Shown: one piece after another, positions 1,567 to 47,888 of the stretch | Numbering within the stretch: the first letter of the stretch is position 1 | Layout: each line of letters opens with the position of its first letter | Position numbers and translations under genes: made by a program | From: an uncultured Candidatus Saccharibacteria bacterium | Lineage (GTDB): Bacteria > Patescibacteriota > Minisyncoccia > Phycocordibacterales > UBA9973 | DNA length: 64,000 nucleotides | Assembly: GCA_964532495.1 (NCBI GenBank) | Contig: CAZHJZ010000001.1 | Coordinates: 108,890 to 172,889, forward strand | Direction: 5' to 3' | Notes under the pieces: generated by a model | The model's database searches: none | What the model saw: only the letters and a program-made list of their open reading frames with translations | What the model was told of the DNA's origin: nothing

Positions 1567-4500
1567 CTATATTACGATGTTAATAAGACGTCCTGGAACA
1601 TAGACAACTCGTCGGATTTCTTTTCCTTCAGTCCAAGACACGATAACGGAGTCTTTGAGAGCCAGAGCTTTTACCTCTTCTTCGGGCATTTCCTTAGGAA
1701 TAGTGAGTTCTGCGCGAATCTTCCCATTAATCTGAACAACGATCTTCACTGTATCGCTTACTAGTTTCTTTGGGTCAAATTTTGGCCAGCCAGAAATATG
1801 AATGCTCTTTTTTTCTCCAAGTTCATGCCAGAGATCTTCGGTAACATGGGACGCAAACGGCGCGAGGATCTGCAAAAACATTTTAAAATCCTTTGCAGAA
1901 ATAGCTTCGGATTTTTCCATTTCATTAACACAAATCATCATTGCTGAAATCGCGGTATTGAAATTGAACCCCGCGATATCATCGCCGACTTTCTTAATAG
2001 TTTTGTGCAATACTTTTTCCGCCTCAGGAGATGTCTTCCCTTTTTCCGAAACCTTGAATTGCAAACGCCACACTTTTTCAATAAATCTGCGTGAGCCAAT
2101 GATGCCCTCCGTGCTCCATGGCAAATGCGAATCAAACGGACCGAGGAACATTTCAAAGACACGAAGAGAGTCTGCTCCGTACGTTTTGATTACATCGTCA
2201 GGATTTACAACATTCCCCCATCGCTTGGACATTTTTCGTCCATCTGCTCCGCCAATCATTCCTTGGTTGCGAAGAGCTTTGAATGGCTCAGCTGAAGGCA
2301 CGTATCCCATATCAAACAAGAACTTATGCCAGAAACGAGAATACAGCAAATGTCCTGTCGCATGCTCAGCGCCTCCCACGTACATATCGACGCCGCCATC
2401 TTTTTTACCAAACCAATATGAAAGTGATTTTTTTGAAGCAAACGCAGATTTGTTGAGAGGGTCTGCGTAACGCAAGAAATACCATGATGAACCGGCCCAG
2501 CCTGGCATTGTGTTTGTTTCATATCCCTCTTTTACCCAAGCCTTTACTCCAGCAAGCGGACTCTCGCCGTTTCCAGACGGTTCATATGAAGTGACATTTG
2601 GAAGCTTGAGCGGAAGTTCCTTTTCTTTGAGCGGAACAATCTGGCCGATTTTTGCGTCCAACTTAAGAGGAATAGGTTCGCCCCAGTATCGCTGGCGCGC
2701 AAAGATAGCGTCACGCATCTTGAATTTCGTAACCAATTTCCCGCCAACAGCTTCGGTGATCTGTACGCGAGCTTCTAGAGAATCCAATCCGCTGAATGTT
2801 CCAGAATCAATCAGCATGCCGTCGTCAGTGAAAATATAATCAGGATTTTTAATGAGATCAAGAGCGCGAGTGCCTTCGATGACAGTGAAGTAATTCTTTT
2901 CAAGTTCCGGCAATGTTTTCCAGACAACACTATGGATCGCTGCTTCTTTTTCATCTATAGGATCGCGAGACTCATCAACAAGATCAAACATCAAGAAACA
3001 AAATCGCGCATGGCGGTTCTGCTTTTTGATACGATGATAGAAGAAACTATTAAGTACGATATTAGGATTTTTGACGAGCTTAAGATTTTTATAGCCAGTC
3101 TCTTCTTGGATTTCCCGCTTTGCGGCCTCAACAAGATCCTCGCCATCTTCAACACCTCCGGTAACTAATCCATGCATAACAAAATCCTTCCAATCAGTCG
3201 TGAGGTAGGTATTGTCTTTGGGATTTCGAATGATAGCTGCAGCAGCTGTTCGCTTAATGAATGGTTCCTTTGCTCTAATGCCATCTTCTCCGCCACGGTC
3301 TTCCCAGAATTTTTCTTCAACGACTGTCTTTATCGGCAGATTGTATTTCTTTGCGAATGCATAGTCTCGCTCATCATGCGCTGGCACAGCCATCACAGCT
3401 CCTGTTCCATATCCTGCGAGCACATAGTCAGCAACCCACACAGGAACCTGTTCTCCGTTTGCAGGATTGATTGCATGAACTCCGAGCAATCTAACGCCTG
3501 TTTTTTCCTTGTCAGCATTTGTTCGCTCTTCGGGAGTTTTCTTTTTTACATCTTCGATATATTTTTCAACTTCTTTCCAGTTCAAGACATGAGGCTGGAG
3601 CTTTGAAACAACATCGCTCTCTGGAGCAATGCTGATATAGGTCACGCCAAACAATGTATCTGCGCGAGTGGTAAATACATCAACCGATTCGGAAAGTTTT
3701 ATCCATGGTAGTACTTCGTTTTTCAAACATGACATAAAGACGTTGTAGCGTTCAGCCACTGTCTGGTTGCCTTTGCACACGCCTGTTTCAGCATCTACCA
3801 ACAAACATTCTGTTGGGTATCCCTGCCAAAAACTTCCTTTAATTCGCTTTGATTGGAATTTGTATTCTCGCTGAGCAGAGGAAGTTGTCTTCGTTCCGTT
3901 TTCATCGGTATATGAAAGTCCAAAAATAAATCGTGCTTTTGAGTCACCGACTTTTTTGAGCCACTTTTGAAAAAACGCGATCACATCTTCATCGCTTGTC
4001 TTGTCGTTTCCGTTGCCGGCTTCTTTGCGCATATGTATGACGATCTGATTGTCCTTCGGCCACTTCTCAACCCAAAACACATTGTCAGTGGAAAGCGTCG
4101 GAATGCCGGTTTTCTTGAAATAGAATTCCGACTTCATTTTTGCATTTTCCAAGAAGTCTTGGCCTTCCACTAAGCTTGAGTCATCAACAGGCGGAATATC
4201 ATTCAAACTGATGAGTTCAATACCAGAATCTTTCGGGAAGCATTCTCGGAGCATTTTTACTTTTGCCTCATTTCGAGTACCGACAAGAACCTGCTTCGGA
4301 TGATTTTTTTCCGCCTTGATCTGGAATGGAATAAGCGAGCCTTCGCTTCGTCCAATCCAGTTGCGCTGAATTTCTTTGAGGTGCTCGCTCCAATCAAGCC
4401 CATCTAAATCTTGCAGCAATCGTTCTGCGTACGCAGTAATACGCATGAACCACTGGCGCATGCTTTTCTTCACAACTGGGTATCCGCCACGTTCTGAAAC

Positions 4501-5220
4501 TGGTCCGTTTGGTCCATCAACAATTTCATCGTTTGCAAGAACCGTGCCCATTTCTGGGCACCAATTCACTTCGCTGTACCCTTCGTAGCTCAAGCGATAC
4601 TGCATCAGGATGTTTTCTTTCTGAAGCTTTGAAAAACCTTTCCATTCCTTTGCTGAAAAAACTGATGTCATTTTCGCATCGCAGGCAGCATCAACGCCAG
4701 CATTTCCTTTTTTCTCAAAAATAGAAACGAGCTCAGAAATCGGTCGAGCTTTTTGTTTTGTGTTGTCATACCACGCATTGTAAATCTGAAGGAATATCCA
4801 CTGCGTCCATTTGTAGTATTCAGGATCTGTCGTATTTACTTTGCGAGACCAATCATATGAAAGGCCAATGATAGACATCTGCTTTTCAAACGTCTTCACA
4901 TTTTCATCAACTGCTTTTCGTGGATGCACTTTGTGCTGGATTGCATACTGCTCAGCTGGAAGTCCGAATGCGTCGTATCCCATTGGATGCAGCACATTGA
5001 AACCCTGCATACGCTTCATTCGAGCATAGACGTCAGAACCAATGTAGCCGCGAGGATGGCCGACGTGAAGTCCCGCTCCTGAGGGATACGGAAACATGTC
5101 CAAGACATACATCTTTTTCTTTTTAGAATTCGCCTCAGTCTTGTAGGTCTTGTCGGCCTGCCATTTCTGCTGCCAATGCTTTTCTATCGACGAGTGATCA
5201 TATGCCTTGGGTTTCTTCAT
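1567..5220 (-). CDS. leuS: leucyl-tRNA synthetase, unusually long (1217 aa), with two inserted pyrophosphohydrolase-type domains
   Basis: Class I HIGH motif (HVGHPRGY) and KMSKS (GRKMSKRWGNV). Editing-domain motifs TTRADTLFGV and GTGAVMAVPAHDERDY. Colinear with E. coli LeuRS apart from roughly 200-aa and 160-aa insertions (see findings). Confidence 0.95.
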   Translation of the reverse strand: MKKPKAYDHSSIEKHWQQKWQADKTYKTEANSKKKKMYVLDMFPYPSGAGLHVGHPRGYIGSDVYARMKRMQGFNVLHPMGYDAFGLPAEQYAIQHKVHPRKAVDENVKTFEKQMSIIGLSYDWSRKVNTTDPEYYKWTQWIFLQIYNAWYDNTKQKARPISELVSIFEKKGNAGVDAACDAKMTSVFSAKEWKGFSKLQKENILMQYRLSYEGYSEVNWCPEMGTVLANDEIVDGPNGPVSERGGYPVVKKSMRQWFMRITAYAERLLQDLDGLDWSEHLKEIQRNWIGRSEGSLIPFQIKAEKNHPKQVLVGTRNEAKVKMLRECFPKDSGIELISLNDIPPVDDSSLVEGQDFLENAKMKSEFYFKKTGIPTLSTDNVFWVEKWPKDNQIVIHMRKEAGNGNDKTSDEDVIAFFQKWLKKVGDSKARFIFGLSYTDENGTKTTSSAQREYKFQSKRIKGSFWQGYPTECLLVDAETGVCKGNQTVAERYNVFMSCLKNEVLPWIKLSESVDVFTTRADTLFGVTYISIAPESDVVSKLQPHVLNWKEVEKYIEDVKKKTPEERTNADKEKTGVRLLGVHAINPANGEQVPVWVADYVLAGYGTGAVMAVPAHDERDYAFAKKYNLPIKTVVEEKFWEDRGGEDGIRAKEPFIKRTAAAAIIRNPKDNTYLTTDWKDFVMHGLVTGGVEDGEDLVEAAKREIQEETGYKNLKLVKNPNIVLNSFFYHRIKKQNRHARFCFLMFDLVDESRDPIDEKEAAIHSVVWKTLPELEKNYFTVIEGTRALDLIKNPDYIFTDDGMLIDSGTFSGLDSLEARVQITEAVGGKLVTKFKMRDAIFARQRYWGEPIPLKLDAKIGQIVPLKEKELPLKLPNVTSYEPSGNGESPLAGVKAWVKEGYETNTMPGWAGSSWYFLRYADPLNKSAFASKKSLSYWFGKKDGGVDMYVGGAEHATGHLLYSRFWHKFLFDMGYVPSAEPFKALRNQGMIGGADGRKMSKRWGNVVNPDDVIKTYGADSLRVFEMFLGPFDSHLPWSTEGIIGSRRFIEKVWRLQFKVSEKGKTSPEAEKVLHKTIKKVGDDIAGFNFNTAISAMMICVNEMEKSEAISAKDFKMFLQILAPFASHVTEDLWHELGEKKSIHISGWPKFDPKKLVSDTVKIVVQINGKIRAELTIPKEMPEEEVKALALKDSVIVSWTEGKEIRRVVYVPGRLINIVI

Positions 5221-7397: not shown

Positions 7398-7910
7398 ATG
7401 AATCCAGATCCCCTCAAACAACTTTCACCGCTTGAACGATTTTCGATCCGCGCAACACGCTGGGTCGGATCGATCCAGTCACTTGTCGTTCACACGATAC
7501 TATTCCTCGTTGCTTTCATATTGATGATTTTCGGCATCAGTTTCGACAAGATACTGCTCGTCCTTACAACAATTGTTTCGCTTGAAGCAATCTATCTTTC
7601 CATTTTTATCCAAATGTCAGTGAATCGCCAAGGCCGCAGGCTGCACGCAGTGTCAAAAGACATTGATGAGATTCAAGAAGATATCGACGAGATCCAGGAA
7701 GACGTTGAAAAAATTGAAAAAGATGTCGATGAAATCCAAGAGGACGTCGAAGAAATTCAAGAAGATGTCGAGGAAATCGGAGAAGATGTTGAAGACATTA
7801 CCGAAGATGACCAAGACGACGATGCGCGCTATGGCCGCATAGAAAAAAACCTGGAGGCCCTCATTCAGGAAATCGGCAGCCTCAAGAAACCGGCAGACAA
7901 AAAGAAATAG
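7398..7910 (+). CDS. DUF1003-like two-TM membrane protein with acidic heptad-repeat tail
   Basis: Segment LVVHTILFLVAFILMIFGI...LEAIYLSIFIQMSVNRQ matches my memory of DUF1003 (LSLEA...MSQNRQ). The C-terminus has seven 7-aa repeats, DIDEIQE-like. Confidence 0.55.
   Translation: MNPDPLKQLSPLERFSIRATRWVGSIQSLVVHTILFLVAFILMIFGISFDKILLVLTTIVSLEAIYLSIFIQMSVNRQGRRLHAVSKDIDEIQEDIDEIQEDVEKIEKDVDEIQEDVEEIQEDVEEIGEDVEDITEDDQDDDARYGRIEKNLEALIQEIGSLKKPADKKK
7659..7805 (+). repeat. 21-bp tandem repeat (7 copies) encoding acidic heptads D[IV][DE]EIQE
   Basis: Units gacattgatgagattcaagaa, gatatcgacgagatccaggaa, and so on, read directly in the sequence. Confidence 0.8.
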
Positions 7911-12990: not shown

Positions 12991-13020
12991 TAAAACCCCA
13001 CACACGGGGTTTTATTTTTT
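12991..13020 (+). terminator. intrinsic terminator after the tRNA
   Basis: aaaacccca cacacggggtttt, then a T-run. Confidence 0.7.
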
Positions 13021-13443
13021 TAATATCTTAAGACTTTCTTTTAAAGCTCTCGATTGATCCTTGGGTAAATCATTAATGGGAAACCATTCTGCTTGGGATA
13101 CTTCATGATTCTTACTTAATCTTTTTTCGTGTGTTTTACTATAAAACAAAGAAATAGTATCTTGCTTATATTCAATGGAACTTTTATAAGTACCCAATAA
13201 AATAACGTCTCCAAGGTATATATTAAGTTCTTCTTTAACTTCTCTTTTAATGGCTAACTCAGGAATCTCTCGCAGACCGCAACCACCACCAGGAAGTGTC
13301 CAATAATTTCCGGAATAAGATGTTTTAATTAGTAGGAAGTGGTTATCATTTTCGATGAGGCATTTCACTCCCAGGGTATGAGGACGGAAAACAAACCAAT
13401 AGCATTGTCGGATTGAATTAAGGAATGAGTAGATTATATTCAT
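13012..13443 (-). CDS. NUDIX hydrolase
   Basis: Nudix box GGCGLREIPELAIKREVKEELNI (Gx5Ex7REVxEE). Confidence 0.8.
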   Translation of the reverse strand: MNIIYSFLNSIRQCYWFVFRPHTLGVKCLIENDNHFLLIKTSYSGNYWTLPGGGCGLREIPELAIKREVKEELNIYLGDVILLGTYKSSIEYKQDTISLFYSKTHEKRLSKNHEVSQAEWFPINDLPKDQSRALKESLKILKK

Positions 13444-13458
13444 TGTTTATACATTTAT

Positions 13459-38371: not shown

Positions 38372-40672
38372 ATGAAGGAACGAATCTACACTTTCATTCG
38401 AGATCACCGAGACCGACTGATCATCGGCGTCTGTTGCGTGGTCGCACTCGGAGCAGCCACAGCAACCTTCATTCAACATAGTAAAACCTCGAACGCTGTA
38501 GAAAATGAATCCACTAAGGCTTCATATCAAGTTGCAAATGAAAGTACGATTCCCGTCCCCGATGTTCCCGTAAATATCTCATTTGAAAATATTCCCGACG
38601 ATTCATTCCTACCAGCAAAAACAGGAAAACTCATCCGCGTTAACTTAGTCACGATGGCGCTCAATCGATATGAGAATGGCCAGCTGGCCGGAGAACCAAT
38701 GCCCATTCTTGCAAAAGGAAAGCTTGGCTCATTTTGGGAAACTCCGGGCGGAAGCTACCCTATCATCGACTCGCAAGAAGAATACTATTCGGAAAAAGCC
38801 GGTGCGTTTTTCCCATATACGCTGCACCTCTTTGGAAACTACATGATCCATGGTGAGCCACATGACAAAAACAACCGCTTGGTCAAAACCACGAGCGGCG
38901 GCATTAGACTTTCCAACGAAGATGCTAAAACTATATATGTTTGGTCTGACGCCGACACTCGCGTTTCAGTCTACAGCGACAGCAAACTCAAGCCGCAGAC
39001 GCTTTCATCTGAATCTACGTACATTACGGAAACAGGAGAAACCTTGCCGAAAGTAACAGCCGAAAGTTACATTGTTGCAGATCTTGATACTGGTGAAGTG
39101 ATCCTTCACAGCAATAAAGATGTGCCTCACCCTATCGCCTCTGTTTCGAAACTCATGACGGCGCTTGTATCGACTGACACGATGAATCAATTCGAGTTCG
39201 CTACCGTTTCAAAAAAAGCTACGCAAGTATACAGCGTCAACAAATTTGCCGTCGGAGAGAAGATCGCACTTTCCAATCTCATCTACCCCCTCCTCCTTCC
39301 TTCAAGCAATGTCGCAGCAGAAATAATCGCCGAACACGCAGGACGAGACACCTTCATGTCTGAGATGAATGCTGAAGCACTAAAGCTTGGCATGACAAAA
39401 ACCCACTACGACGATCCGTCAGGACTTTCCGCAAAAAACGTTTCAACGGCATCTGATCTTTTTTTACTGACGCAAGCAATCTTCAAAGACCGGCCGTTTA
39501 TTTTTAATATTACTCTTGTCCCATCCTACAGCGCGCAAGGACACTCATGGAAAAACATCAGCCAGTTCATGAAAGTGCCTGGCTACATCGGCGGTAAAAG
39601 CGGACAGACAGACGAAGCGCGGCAATCAAACGTCGCAATCTTCAAGCTTCCCCTTTCAGAAGCCGGCACACGAAACATCGCAATCATTGTGCTTCGCTCA
39701 AACGACCGCTACACCGACACTATGAAAATCTTTAATTTCGTCAAAAGCCGCGTAGTATACGGAAGCAGCAAGAATGTCACGATCACCGACGGCAACGATC
39801 TTTCAAGCAACATCGTGCTTACCTTCGTCGGAGATATGATGCTCGATCGCGGGGTGAAGTTTTCGGTCAGAAAAAATTTTGGAGGCGACTACTCAAGGCT
39901 TTTCGCAAACATGGGTCTGATTCAGAAAAGCGATCTTGCCTTTGCAAACCTCGAAGGTCCAGTGTCAGACAAGGGCGACGACCTCCACGATCTCTATTCG
40001 TTCCGCATGGATCCGAGCGTTCTTGAAAACGTCCGTTCAGCAGGCTTTGACATCCTTTCATTTGCGAACAATCACGTTGGAGACTGGGGTCACGAAGCGT
40101 TTGATGACAGCATGGCGCGCATGGAAAATGCCGGCCTCAAATACATTGGTGCAGGAGAAACAAAAGAACAGGCCGTTCAGCCTGTCATAGAAACAATCAA
40201 AGGAACAAAATTCGGCTTCATCGGATTTACCGATGTCGGACCAGACAAGCTTGCCGCAACAAGCATGGATTCTGGTGTCCTCCTCGCAAGCGATCCAGAT
40301 TTTACAAAGATCATCGCCAATGCAAAGAAACAAGCAGATGTCCTGATCGTCTCATTCCACTGGGGCGTAGAATACAAAGAGCATACTACGCGGCAGACCG
40401 AACTAGCTAAAAAAGCAATCGATGCCGGTGCAAATATTATTATCGGTACGCACCCGCATGTCGTTCAAGATGTAGAAATATACAATGGCGGCCTTATCGC
40501 CTACTCGCTTGGAAACTTTATTTTTGATCAAACCATGTCTGCTGAAACAATGCGCGGCATGCTTCTCCAAGTTACCTTTGACGCACGCGACAAATCTCTC
40601 AAACGATATGACAAGTATACAGTCAACATTTCAAACCAGTTTCAGCCGCAAGTTCCTGAGCTGGTGAGATAG
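38372..40672 (+). CDS. tri-domain cell-wall protein: L,D-transpeptidase-like (YkuD) domain, S11 D-Ala-D-Ala carboxypeptidase domain, CapA/PgsA-type metallophosphatase domain
   Basis: YkuD-like YMIHGEP...TSGGIRL (the Cys of SHGCIR is Gly here). SxxK ASVSKLMTA, SxN LPSSNVAAE, KTG-like GGKSGQT. CapA motifs VLTFVGDMML, FANLEGP, HWGVEY, IIGTHPHVVQ. Confidence 0.7.
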   Translation: MKERIYTFIRDHRDRLIIGVCCVVALGAATATFIQHSKTSNAVENESTKASYQVANESTIPVPDVPVNISFENIPDDSFLPAKTGKLIRVNLVTMALNRYENGQLAGEPMPILAKGKLGSFWETPGGSYPIIDSQEEYYSEKAGAFFPYTLHLFGNYMIHGEPHDKNNRLVKTTSGGIRLSNEDAKTIYVWSDADTRVSVYSDSKLKPQTLSSESTYITETGETLPKVTAESYIVADLDTGEVILHSNKDVPHPIASVSKLMTALVSTDTMNQFEFATVSKKATQVYSVNKFAVGEKIALSNLIYPLLLPSSNVAAEIIAEHAGRDTFMSEMNAEALKLGMTKTHYDDPSGLSAKNVSTASDLFLLTQAIFKDRPFIFNITLVPSYSAQGHSWKNISQFMKVPGYIGGKSGQTDEARQSNVAIFKLPLSEAGTRNIAIIVLRSNDRYTDTMKIFNFVKSRVVYGSSKNVTITDGNDLSSNIVLTFVGDMMLDRGVKFSVRKNFGGDYSRLFANMGLIQKSDLAFANLEGPVSDKGDDLHDLYSFRMDPSVLENVRSAGFDILSFANNHVGDWGHEAFDDSMARMENAGLKYIGAGETKEQAVQPVIETIKGTKFGFIGFTDVGPDKLAATSMDSGVLLASDPDFTKIIANAKKQADVLIVSFHWGVEYKEHTTRQTELAKKAIDAGANIIIGTHPHVVQDVEIYNGGLIAYSLGNFIFDQTMSAETMRGMLLQVTFDARDKSLKRYDKYTVNISNQFQPQVPELVR

Positions 40673-46982: not shown

Positions 46983-47888
46983 TTAGCGCTTTCCAGTAAT
47001 GATAGGAATAGCCTTGGCGATCAATGCCGTCACACTATCATACATGTGGAGGGTTGTCACCTCTTTCAATGAGAACCATTTGCAGTCATCAAGGCCGCCT
47101 GAGGTTGACTCAAGTTTGACTGGAACGTACGAAGACTCGCCCAAATAAAAGATCACCTGCTTGCGGATCTTACCTTTTTGAGGATGCGATGCGACGTATT
47201 CATCGTCGCCAAGCTTTTCGACAATCTTCATGTCGAGGCTCATTTCTTCTTTGATCTCTCGGATCGCAGCTTGCTCCGGTGTTTCTCCTTCTTCAACGCT
47301 TCCTTTTGAAAGTGTCCAGTAGCCGAACACATCATGCACCATGGCAAGGTAAATCTCGCCCTTATCTATGGCGTATACGACTGCGCCCGCCTTGCTTTCA
47401 ATCGGGAGCTTGGTGATGTCCACGGGCTCATCTTTCATCTGTCGTTTTGACTTCTGGTCTTTGCCTGGTTCGCCAAGTTCTTTGTACACCGCACCCAATA
47501 CGCCGTTCACAAATCGTGACGAGCTGTCTGAGCCGAATGTTTTCGCAAGTTCGATCGCTTCATTAATAGAAACTTTTGGAGGAACTTCGTTGTGATCGCC
47601 AAACAAAAGCTCAGCAAGTCCCATGCGAAGAATATTTCGATCAACTGCATTGATCTTGTCGATCGGCCATTCTGGAGCAGCCTTTGCAACAATTTCATCA
47701 ATAAGATCCTTTTTGCGAATAACGTTCATAGTGAGCGTTGTCATAAACGGCAAGTCTTCGAGACCTGGAGCGAACTCTTCTGAGTTGCGCTTCAAAATAC
47801 CCTCGACATCGCTGTCTGGCTTACCTTTAAAATCCCACTCGAAGAGGGTTTGGAGAATCACTGAACGTGAAAGATGACGATTTGCCAT
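46983..47888 (-). CDS. nusB: NusB antitermination factor fused to a C-terminal NUDIX hydrolase domain
   Basis: NusB fold over residues 1-140 (ILQTLFEWDF, LRMGLAELLF). Nudix box GSVEEGETPEQAAIREIKEEMSL in the C-terminal 140 aa. Confidence 0.8.
   Translation of the reverse strand: MANRHLSRSVILQTLFEWDFKGKPDSDVEGILKRNSEEFAPGLEDLPFMTTLTMNVIRKKDLIDEIVAKAAPEWPIDKINAVDRNILRMGLAELLFGDHNEVPPKVSINEAIELAKTFGSDSSSRFVNGVLGAVYKELGEPGKDQKSKRQMKDEPVDITKLPIESKAGAVVYAIDKGEIYLAMVHDVFGYWTLSKGSVEEGETPEQAAIREIKEEMSLDMKIVEKLGDDEYVASHPQKGKIRKQVIFYLGESSYVPVKLESTSGGLDDCKWFSLKEVTTLHMYDSVTALIAKAIPIITGKR

Follow-up and report, generated by a model that had tools for sequence, protein, structure and literature searches.

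What might two nucleotide-pyrophosphohydrolase-type domains be doing inside the editing domain of a leucyl-tRNA synthetase (LeuRS)? The question is raised by leuS in a 64,000-nucleotide (nt) stretch of contig CAZHJZ010000001.1 (assembly GCA_964532495.1), which we call the window. A preliminary description of this DNA had reported a LeuRS with an embedded Ham1-like domain and an embedded Nudix domain. Our analysis bears this out: by profile hidden Markov models (HMMs), AlphaFold2 (AF2) models, and Foldseek searches, both inserts are complete domains of the named folds. The residues first assigned to them, amino acids (aa) 303 to 510 and 636 to 795, had been correctly converted to window positions (nt 3691 to 4314 and 2836 to 3315). 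The features used below, in which the divergent Ham1/ITPase-fold domain is called Ham1L, are as follows.

1567 to 5220, minus strand: leuS, the host gene, encoding a complete 1217-aa leucine-tRNA ligase (one unbroken open reading frame [ORF]; TIGR00396)
5056 to 5067, minus strand: HIGH signature, reading HVGH, aa 52 to 55 (motif search; kept in homologues)
2680 to 4362, minus strand: CP1 editing domain including both nested inserts, from NWIGRSEG at aa 287 to RQRYWG at aa 847 (PF13603 and alignment to 2V0C)
3691 to 4296, minus strand: site A insert, Ham1L, aa 309 to 510 (NCBIfam, AF2, Foldseek, and family alignment)
3655 to 3672, minus strand: T-rich editing motif TTRADT, aa 517 to 522, 6 residues past the Ham1L insert (aligned to FTTRPDT of 2V0C)
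3361 to 3399, minus strand: editing motif AVMAVPAHDERDY, aa 608 to 620, bearing conserved editing Asp residues (aligned to AIMAVPAHDQRDY of 2V0C)
2836 to 3318, minus strand: site B insert, Nudix hydrolase domain, aa 635 to 795 (Pfam, AF2, Foldseek)
3091 to 3159, minus strand: Nudix box GGVEDGEDLVEAAKREIQEETGY, aa 688 to 710 (exact fit to GX5EX7REUXEEXGU)
3013 to 3027, minus strand: family-specific K-x-x-N-R motif (KKQNR), aa 732 to 736, at +22 to +26 after the Nudix box, in the X-loop region
2221 to 2235, minus strand: KMSK signature, reading KMSKR, aa 996 to 1000 (motif search; kept in homologues)

The host protein is encoded by 3654 nt and is recognized by the bacterial LeuRS equivalog HMM TIGR00396 (leuS_bact) with 888.9 bits, against a curated cutoff of 548.4. 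Pfam assigns to it tRNA-synt_1, tRNA-synt_1_2, Anticodon_1, and the editing domain PF13603 (189 bits, in two separate stretches). The HIGH and KMSK signatures of class I enzymes and the T-rich and Asp motifs of CP1 are all present, and the ratio of nonsynonymous to synonymous substitution rates (dN/dS) of the LeuRS core is about 0.04 in comparison with the closest homologue (L001). On sequence grounds, the protein is a predicted functional bacterial-type LeuRS of a Paceibacteria/Taylorbacteria-like Patescibacteria bacterium, in which two surface loops of CP1 are each occupied by a complete domain of nucleotide-pyrophosphatase type that folds independently.

The alignment to Thermus thermophilus LeuRS (2V0C) is interrupted at exactly two points in CP1, between residues 238 and 243 (site A) and between residues 364 and 376 (site B). 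Site A is the first beta-hairpin of CP1, immediately ahead of the T-rich editing motif, while site B lies immediately behind the AHDxRD editing motif (AHDERD in the query). The preliminary description had called the protein colinear with known LeuRS except for the two insertions. This holds for the two breaks in CP1 but not for the protein as a whole, since about 70 aa are extra relative to the LeuRS in L021; they lie between FLQIY and NWCP (aa 148 to 219; window 4564 to 4779, minus strand). The query LeuRS also lacks the Cys residues of the zinc-binding CxxC...CxxC present in L021 (NWCPEMG...SERGG versus NWCPKCQ...CERCG). In these features, the query LeuRS resembles the actinobacterial type.

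The architecture recurs. The exact 1217-aa protein sequence is present in NCBI on a 200-kb contig, homologues with the same two inserts (56 to 92% identity) come from independent NCBI, ENA, JGI, and Logan assemblies, and the Ham1-like module is carried by 17 GTDB species representatives. The GC content is even along the whole leuS gene. In comparison with L001, dN is 0.020 for Ham1L (dS 1.46), 0.029 for the Nudix domain, and 0.063 for the LeuRS core; as dS is above 1, saturated, and undefined in some regions, these values are read only as dN lying far below dS. By this measure, both inserts are under strong purifying selection. An intein or other mobile in-frame element was considered and rejected: there is no Hint/intein Pfam match on the whole protein, and the insert junctions, which read ...HPKQVLV... 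and ...IKLSESVDV..., are without splicing residues (no Cys/Ser/Thr plus HN arrangement).

The hmmscan check proposed in the preliminary description gave a divided result: the Nudix model PF00293 matches (51.8 bits), whereas the Ham1 model PF01725 (Ham1p_like) has no match to the query's Ham1L even at E ≤ 1 and so does not reach its gathering score. Related Ham1L copies do exceed that score (31.3 versus 22.5 for L017), and several homologues have precomputed PF01725 matches. NCBIfam models of RdgB/XTP-dITP diphosphatases match the query copy at E 2e-9, far under their curated cutoffs, and sequence searches of the PDB with Ham1L matched ITPases along the N-terminal 75 to 80 residues. The AF2 model, built from 17 homologous inserts, has a predicted local distance difference test score (pLDDT) of 93.2 and a predicted template modeling score of 0.86. 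Its top 32 Foldseek matches are all ITPase/RdgB/Ham1 proteins, aligned over about 207 columns with a template modeling (TM) score of about 0.7 (up to 0.72), followed by Maf proteins. Comparison of the excised segments thus returned the folds that had been named, ITPase at site A and Nudix at site B, and Ham1L, as modeled, is a complete ITPase fold.

The family alignment of Ham1L comprises 17 members with 47 to 97% identity to the query copy and contains 66 invariant columns. The invariant residues T315, N317, K320, E352, K363, D379, and R398/K399 correspond to T8, N10, K13, E41, K53, D69, and R87 of RdgB. (Of the RdgB sequence used for the motif comparison, residues 1 to 97, which cover all of these equivalent positions, were confirmed by PDB alignment.) In RdgB, Lys13, Lys53, and Arg87 make up the triphosphate site, and an Asp acts as the general base in the ITPase fold (PMC3899018). 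The metal-binding aspartates had initially been described as replaced. This is correct for the first Asp of the DD pair (RdgB D68), which is T378 in the query and T, L, or M across the family, but not for the second, D379, which is invariant in 17 of 17 members. In the alignment with RdgB, the motifs DSGL, PG-YSAR, FGYDP, and SHR are absent, and Ham1L has invariant motifs of its own in their place: DNxFWxEKW, HMRKE, GYPxE, and K..Q.....Y, the last in the region aligned to SHR. Newly invariant residues are W383, E385, K386, W387, H396, G467-Y468-P469-x-E471, K483, Q486, and Y492. The SHR signature forms the hypoxanthine/xanthine specificity pocket of ITPases (PMC5075207), and since it is missing from Ham1L, the substrate is probably not ITP or XTP.

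Judged from the alignment, Ham1L keeps the catalytic and phosphate-binding residues and has a remodeled base pocket. Relative to the RdgB/ITPA/Ham1 family (PF01725; Escherichia coli RdgB, 2Q16; Mycobacterium abscessus, 6WWD), it has the same fold over its full length and retains T-x-N-x-x-K, E-x-G...ENA..K, one catalytic Asp, and a basic residue at the Arg87 position; it differs in the missing and newly acquired motifs, in its location within or next to LeuRS, and in forming a separate clade. The earlier suggestion that this is not a canonical ITPase is therefore upheld at the level of motifs, SHR, DSGL, and FGYDP being absent.

At site B, PF00293 extends over aa 657 to 773 with 51.8 bits, against a gathering score of 21.1, and the box GGVEDGEDLVEAAKREIQEETGY fits the Nudix consensus exactly, so that the claim of a perfect 23-aa Nudix box stands. 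The strict box pattern is found in 93 of the 100 site B inserts of homologues. An AF2 model made from 39 homologous inserts has a pLDDT of 95.7 and gave 524 Nudix-type Foldseek matches at E ≤ 1e-3, the top of the list consisting solely of Nudix proteins with 2AZW as the best. The nearest structures are a generic mix of uncharacterized 2AZW, MutT1, NudI, ADP-ribose pyrophosphatase, and Ap4A/Ap6A (dinucleoside polyphosphate) hydrolases. When a profile of the site B inserts was compared with the PDB, lupin Ap4A hydrolase (1F3Y) was the best match (E 7e-10), chiefly through the box region.

The site B Nudix family has two motifs of its own, WK..W upstream of the box and K-x-x-N-R after it. Among 85 members the latter is conserved as K in 76, N in 65, and R in 59, and K98 is invariant in the site B insert alignment A2; the motif has no match to any described specificity motif. 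In Nudix enzymes the X-loop, about 17 aa past the box, bears the specificity markers, namely, a Tyr for ApnA, a Pro for ADP-ribose, and SQPWPFPQS for NADH (PMC5389931). No conserved Pro occurs at +14 to +18 in the 85 members, where the commonest residues are H/Q/R, A/S, F, F/Y, and Y/F, and SQPWPFPQS is absent from the site B insert. Aromatic residues do follow the box, F+16, F+17, and Y+18 in the query and, across the family, F (40/85) or Y (31/85) at +17 and Y (29/85) or F (29/85) at +18; in the AF2 model, the query residues sit in a strand, not in a loop. Assignment to a substrate class was tried on this basis and rejected, because neither the ADP-ribose pyrophosphatase Pro nor the NADH motif is found, the aromatic residues leave the ApnA Tyr ambiguous, and the Foldseek neighbors are generic. 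The Ap4A- or alarmone-clearing function earlier proposed for the Nudix module is a weakly supported candidate. Compared with single-domain Nudix proteins (PF00293; Enterococcus faecalis 2AZW, NudI 3OGA/6DT3, MutT1, lupin 1F3Y), the module shares the perfect box, the alpha/beta/alpha fold, and a length of about 150 aa but is nested in the LeuRS editing domain, carries its own WK..W and K-x-x-N-R, and does not clearly fit any described specificity motif.

To what extent other LeuRS share these inserts was judged from motif-to-motif distances in the top 120 LeuRS homologues. (i) Site A (NWIG to TTR; baseline, about 25 aa) is longer by about 200 residues where Ham1L is present and by 110 to 180 in others; by Pfam, the other modules found there are HAD, a second Nudix, alpha/beta (serine) hydrolase, ASCH, DUF559, and GNAT. 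(ii) Site B (AHD to RQRYWG; baseline, about 76 aa) contains a Nudix domain in 100 of the 120 homologues, three of which have tandem Nudix domains. (iii) At site C (RQRYWG to KMSK), up to 216 residues are added to a baseline of 148 aa. Among loci from a genome scan, the largest combination is a 1795-aa LeuRS (L019, 923 to 6307) with five modules: HAD and a canonical Ham1 at site A, Nudix at site B, and Ham1L plus an aminoglycoside-nucleotidyltransferase-like domain at site C. Another LeuRS of 1568 aa (L016, 450 to 5153) has Ham1L, Nudix, Ser_hydrolase, and HAD, and in one of 1352 aa (L015, 2693 to 6748) the stretch from NWCP to NWIG provides a fourth site, which holds an additional Nudix. The carriers are mostly Patescibacteria/Paceibacterota of Taylorbacteria type, some of them metagenome-assembled genomes with automatic labels. 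On lineage specificity, which the preliminary description had left as a question, the closest homologues with a site B Nudix belong mostly to Patescibacteria/Paceibacterota, and small enzyme modules of this kind are common in the LeuRS of the lineage. The rarity that the preliminary description implied does not hold among the closest 120 homologues, where Nudix-bearing LeuRS are the majority; in the literature, our searches found no description.

Within this set, a 1043-aa LeuRS without Nudix (P0089) has a DUF559/restriction-endonuclease-like domain (PF04480, 116.8 bits) in frame at site A (aa ~225 to 390). A nuclease-fold module at an insertion hotspot might bear on the origin of the insertions.

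Ham1L is linked to leuS by more than its place in the query protein. A Ham1L profile had only 626 matches at E ≤ 1e-3 among 1.84 billion representative proteins. The strongest were LeuRS proteins or fragments, a 405-aa protein consisting of an alpha/beta-hydrolase and Ham1L (P0124), and short free-standing genes (about 200 aa) in which these motifs are also present. The close free-standing genes are found directly upstream of leuS in 3 of 3 cases examined:

30 nt upstream of leuS, same strand: free-standing Ham1L of L017; the adjacent LeuRS has 1171 aa and a Nudix domain
25 nt upstream of leuS, same strand: free-standing Ham1L P0126; the adjacent LeuRS is minimal (787 aa) and without inserts
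12 nt upstream of leuS, same strand: free-standing Ham1L P0127 (L021); site A of the LeuRS is empty, and the gene is cut by the contig end

Distant Ham1 relatives adjoin leuS in 0 of 3 cases examined. Embedded Ham1L copies occupy three positions, i.e., site A, a pre-NWIG site in P0122, and site C in L019 (226 bits). In a neighbor-joining tree, the leuS-associated copies, free-standing and embedded, group apart from other Ham1 proteins (bootstrap 76). Deep nodes of the neighbor-joining core and module trees are weakly supported (bootstrap 13 to 48), and our claims from them are limited to the differing positions and to module identities not tracking the core. Recurrent fusion together with conserved adjacency is a classic signature of a functional link, and the tie between Ham1L and leuS looks functional rather than accidental.

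What the modules do can be proposed from these data. The reading toward which we lean, with somewhat better than even confidence, is that LeuRS carries them as tethered nucleotide-sanitation or by-product-clearing enzymes, with a functional tie in the case of Ham1L at least. LeuRS would retain aminoacylation and editing, and each module would be an active Mg2+-dependent pyrophosphohydrolase with a small nucleotide-type substrate. Ham1L, with a triphosphate clamp and a catalytic Asp/Glu, would cut an NTP-like molecule at the alpha-beta bond; because the clamp is kept but the hypoxanthine/xanthine pocket is lost, a substrate other than ITP or XTP is expected. The Nudix module would cut an NDP-X or NTP-type substrate, a dinucleoside polyphosphate being one candidate. 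Like ITPases, Nudix enzymes are counted among the "house-cleaning" nucleotide pyrophosphatases (PMC3899018), and the modules nested in LeuRS would form a recurring set of this type (Ham1L, Nudix, HAD, and serine hydrolase, with GNAT, ASCH, nucleotidyltransferase, and DUF559). Free-standing homologues of both Ham1L and the site B Nudix exist, which speaks for their autonomy.

Several observations weigh against a coupling of the modules to LeuRS. At least eight unrelated domain families share the same loops in different LeuRS, as would fit permissive sites without functional coupling. The site B Nudix inserts have a mean pairwise identity of 32%, versus 64% for the LeuRS core, and the two are uncorrelated. 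In one close homologue (P0003; L003, 2322 to 5996), identity to the query is 82% for the core and 85% for Ham1L, against 26% for the Nudix domain, which in turn is at most 37% identical to any other Nudix insert; this implies that the module was replaced or diverged very rapidly. Ham1L occurs without Nudix in L006 and L020, and since L006 is nested in the query's Ham1L clade (bootstrap 92), the Nudix module is dispensable. A profile search with the insert found free-standing Nudix relatives of about 160 aa, and the one examined is not near leuS. (A search of 5.8 billion proteins with the Nudix insert alone gave 87 candidates and 1 match and was uninformative; the insert profile worked better.) Even the adjacency of Ham1L and leuS may be a mere precondition or precursor of fusion.

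These observations are what would be expected if the modules were active house-cleaning enzymes unrelated to LeuRS that had settled in CP1 loops tolerant of insertions, where, in streamlined genomes, fusion to an essential constitutive gene saves regulatory sequence and assures expression. This is the main alternative, possible though in our view doubtful. In addition to the eight or more families, it draws on the gain, loss, and swapping of modules (no Nudix in L006 and L020, a divergent one in P0003), on module identities that are uncorrelated with the core, and on the free-standing Nudix relative that does not adjoin leuS. A further case lies in the window itself (46983 to 47888, minus strand), where a 301-aa ORF combines NusB (PF01029, aa 7 to 136) with a C-terminal Nudix domain (PF00293, 58.8 bits); this fusion, with which the genome has a second Nudix domain joined to a core protein of transcription or translation, points to a general habit of fusion rather than to a link specific to LeuRS. 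Such hitchhiking, if random, would not be expected to show the specificity of Ham1L, which is found in LeuRS at three positions and upstream of leuS in all three free-standing cases, unlike distant Ham1 genes. Another point against it is P0286, in which CP1 and Nudix persist together without a synthetase body, suggesting that the two work together.

P0286 (L027, 5001 to 5864) is encoded by a complete 875-kb genome labeled "Candidatus Aenigmatarchaeota" (CP066684.1) and is a free-standing 287-aa CP1 domain with a nested Nudix domain. It retains an intact Nudix box, but its T-rich editing motif has degenerated to FVERLET, and PAHSQAD is the sequence at the second motif; the surrounding genes are of archaeal type (fibrillarin, SET, topoisomerase), and no synthetase body is nearby. 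The gene could have passed from Patescibacteria to a DPANN archaeon, and its product may act in trans or may not edit at all; it suggests that CP1 together with Nudix can stand as an independent unit. Free-standing homologues of aminoacyl-tRNA synthetase (aaRS) editing domains that act in trans, of the AlaX and YbaK/ProX type, are well known. P0286 resembles them in being a stand-alone derivative of an aaRS editing domain, with no synthetase gene close to its own, but differs in its CP1 origin, in the nested Nudix domain with an intact box, and in the degenerate T-rich motif.

A second alternative is that one or both modules, most likely Ham1L, have lost hydrolase activity and are appendages of the editing domain for nucleotide sensing, regulation, or tRNA binding or of a purely structural kind. 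The replacement of the first Asp (D68) and the loss of DSGL, PG-YSAR, FGYDP, and SHR tell against an active tethered enzyme and would allow Ham1L to be inactive or ligand binding only; likewise, PF01725 misses the query copy, and the newly invariant residues suggest a remodeled pocket. We nevertheless consider the loss of catalysis unlikely: the K/K/R clamp, the Mg-binding Glu, and the catalytic Asp are invariant in copies with 47 to 97% identity, 93 of 100 inserts have a strict Nudix box, for which no role other than catalysis and metal binding is known, and both modules have free-standing versions.

A more speculative proposal, to which we give a low probability, unites Ham1L, Nudix, HAD, serine hydrolase, GNAT, and nucleotidyltransferase in an on-board system that would destroy or modify adenylate-type molecules at the synthetase. 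Its targets may be non-cognate aminoacyl-adenylates (a new pre-transfer proofreading), Ap4A-type by-products, or natural antibiotics that mimic leucyl-adenylate; Ham1L would then cut at the alpha-phosphate of AMP-X, not of an NTP, and the archaeal CP1-Nudix protein P0286 may be a trans-acting version. A parallel would be the detoxification of microcin-C-type aminoacyl-nucleotides by GNAT (MccE), serine peptidase (MccF), and HIT enzymes.

The last alternative, in which a separate Nudix or Ham1 gene was joined to leuS by a frameshift, a chimeric contig, or a mis-called ORF, is effectively refuted, even though artifacts exist among the database entries of the family (P0125, P0276, and L004), because in-frame CP1 sequence borders each insert at either end within the single 3654-nt ORF, the same architecture occurs in many independent assemblies at 56 to 92% identity, GC content is even, dN is far below dS in the inserts, and no Hint/intein domain is present. 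The caveat about frameshift or chimerism raised in the preliminary description is excluded by the same recurrence and purifying selection.

The three artifactual entries are of different kinds. P0125 (L029, 4100 to 8015) was considered as the C-terminal half of a LeuRS split at site A and rejected as such, since its N-terminal part runs on upstream in the same frame; an internal GTG start had been called, and the true ORF has about 1295 aa with an alpha/beta-hydrolase and Ham1L in tandem at site A. P0276 (L026, 3906 to 7838) represents a fragment of a leuS that, on a long-read-style contig, is split into several small ORFs, probably by indel errors. The frame break in L004 (~3788 to 3900) is a masked N-run.

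Placed beside known systems, the component families and the occurrence of accessory domains on synthetases are not new; for the nested architecture, our literature searches turned up no description, be it of LeuRS or of another aaRS that has Nudix or Ham1 domains inside it. The known accessory domains of aaRSs are mostly terminal and mostly eukaryotic. NCBIfam release 20 contains no model for a LeuRS with Nudix or Ham1. Its ileS_w_GNAT model (NF040702) is comparable in describing a bacterial class Ia synthetase with an extra small-molecule enzyme domain, and GNAT is also found at LeuRS site A, but the synthetase and the module are different ones. In a 2026 survey of domain insertions (Protein Sci), PF13603 was classified as "insertion-exclusive," with zero host events among 213 (PMC13114784). 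CP1 is still inserted in the Rossmann-fold catalytic domain here, in agreement with that survey, but it hosts one to several nested domains, i.e., second-order insertions. The query locus and its relatives contradict the zero-host record.

Our findings indicate that the bacterial LeuRS editing domain has repeatedly hosted complete enzyme domains in its loops, up to five per protein. They also define a Ham1/ITPase subfamily with a predicted altered specificity pocket and a genetic tie to leuS through adjacency and three independent fusion positions, and they suggest that, in ultra-small bacteria dependent on a host, the translation machinery carries a set of nucleotide-sanitation-type enzymes. 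Should the modules act on substrates or by-products of the synthetase, aaRSs would have a further, new level of quality control or self-protection; otherwise, the modules illustrate clearly, in a natural case, how streamlined genomes use the permissive loops of an essential protein to carry other genes. The architecture also offers useful guidance for engineering domain insertions. The nested modules also explain why NCBI downgrades such LeuRS proteins, which are named only "class I tRNA ligase family protein."

The rest of the 64-kb window consists of ordinary housekeeping genes, including rpoB/C, dnaG, dnaE, thrS, gyrB, and those for SMC and RNase R. A small ORF at 13015 to 13446 (minus strand) has a weak match to the LeuRS-insert Nudix profile (E 9e-4, box only), which could be due to chance or to a third Nudix-like gene. 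At 38372 to 40672 (plus strand), a 766-aa protein, one more multi-enzyme fusion of this small genome, combines a YkuD L,D-transpeptidase, a D-Ala-D-Ala carboxypeptidase (Peptidase_S11), and PGA_cap. A 170-aa membrane-anchored ORF at 7398 to 7910 (plus strand) ends in C-terminal acidic near-repeats (DIDEIQEDIDEIQEDVEKIEKDVDEIQEDVEEIQEDVEEIGEDVEDITED); the gene at the matching position in L001 encodes 205 aa and has DUF1003/DUF948-type Pfam matches.

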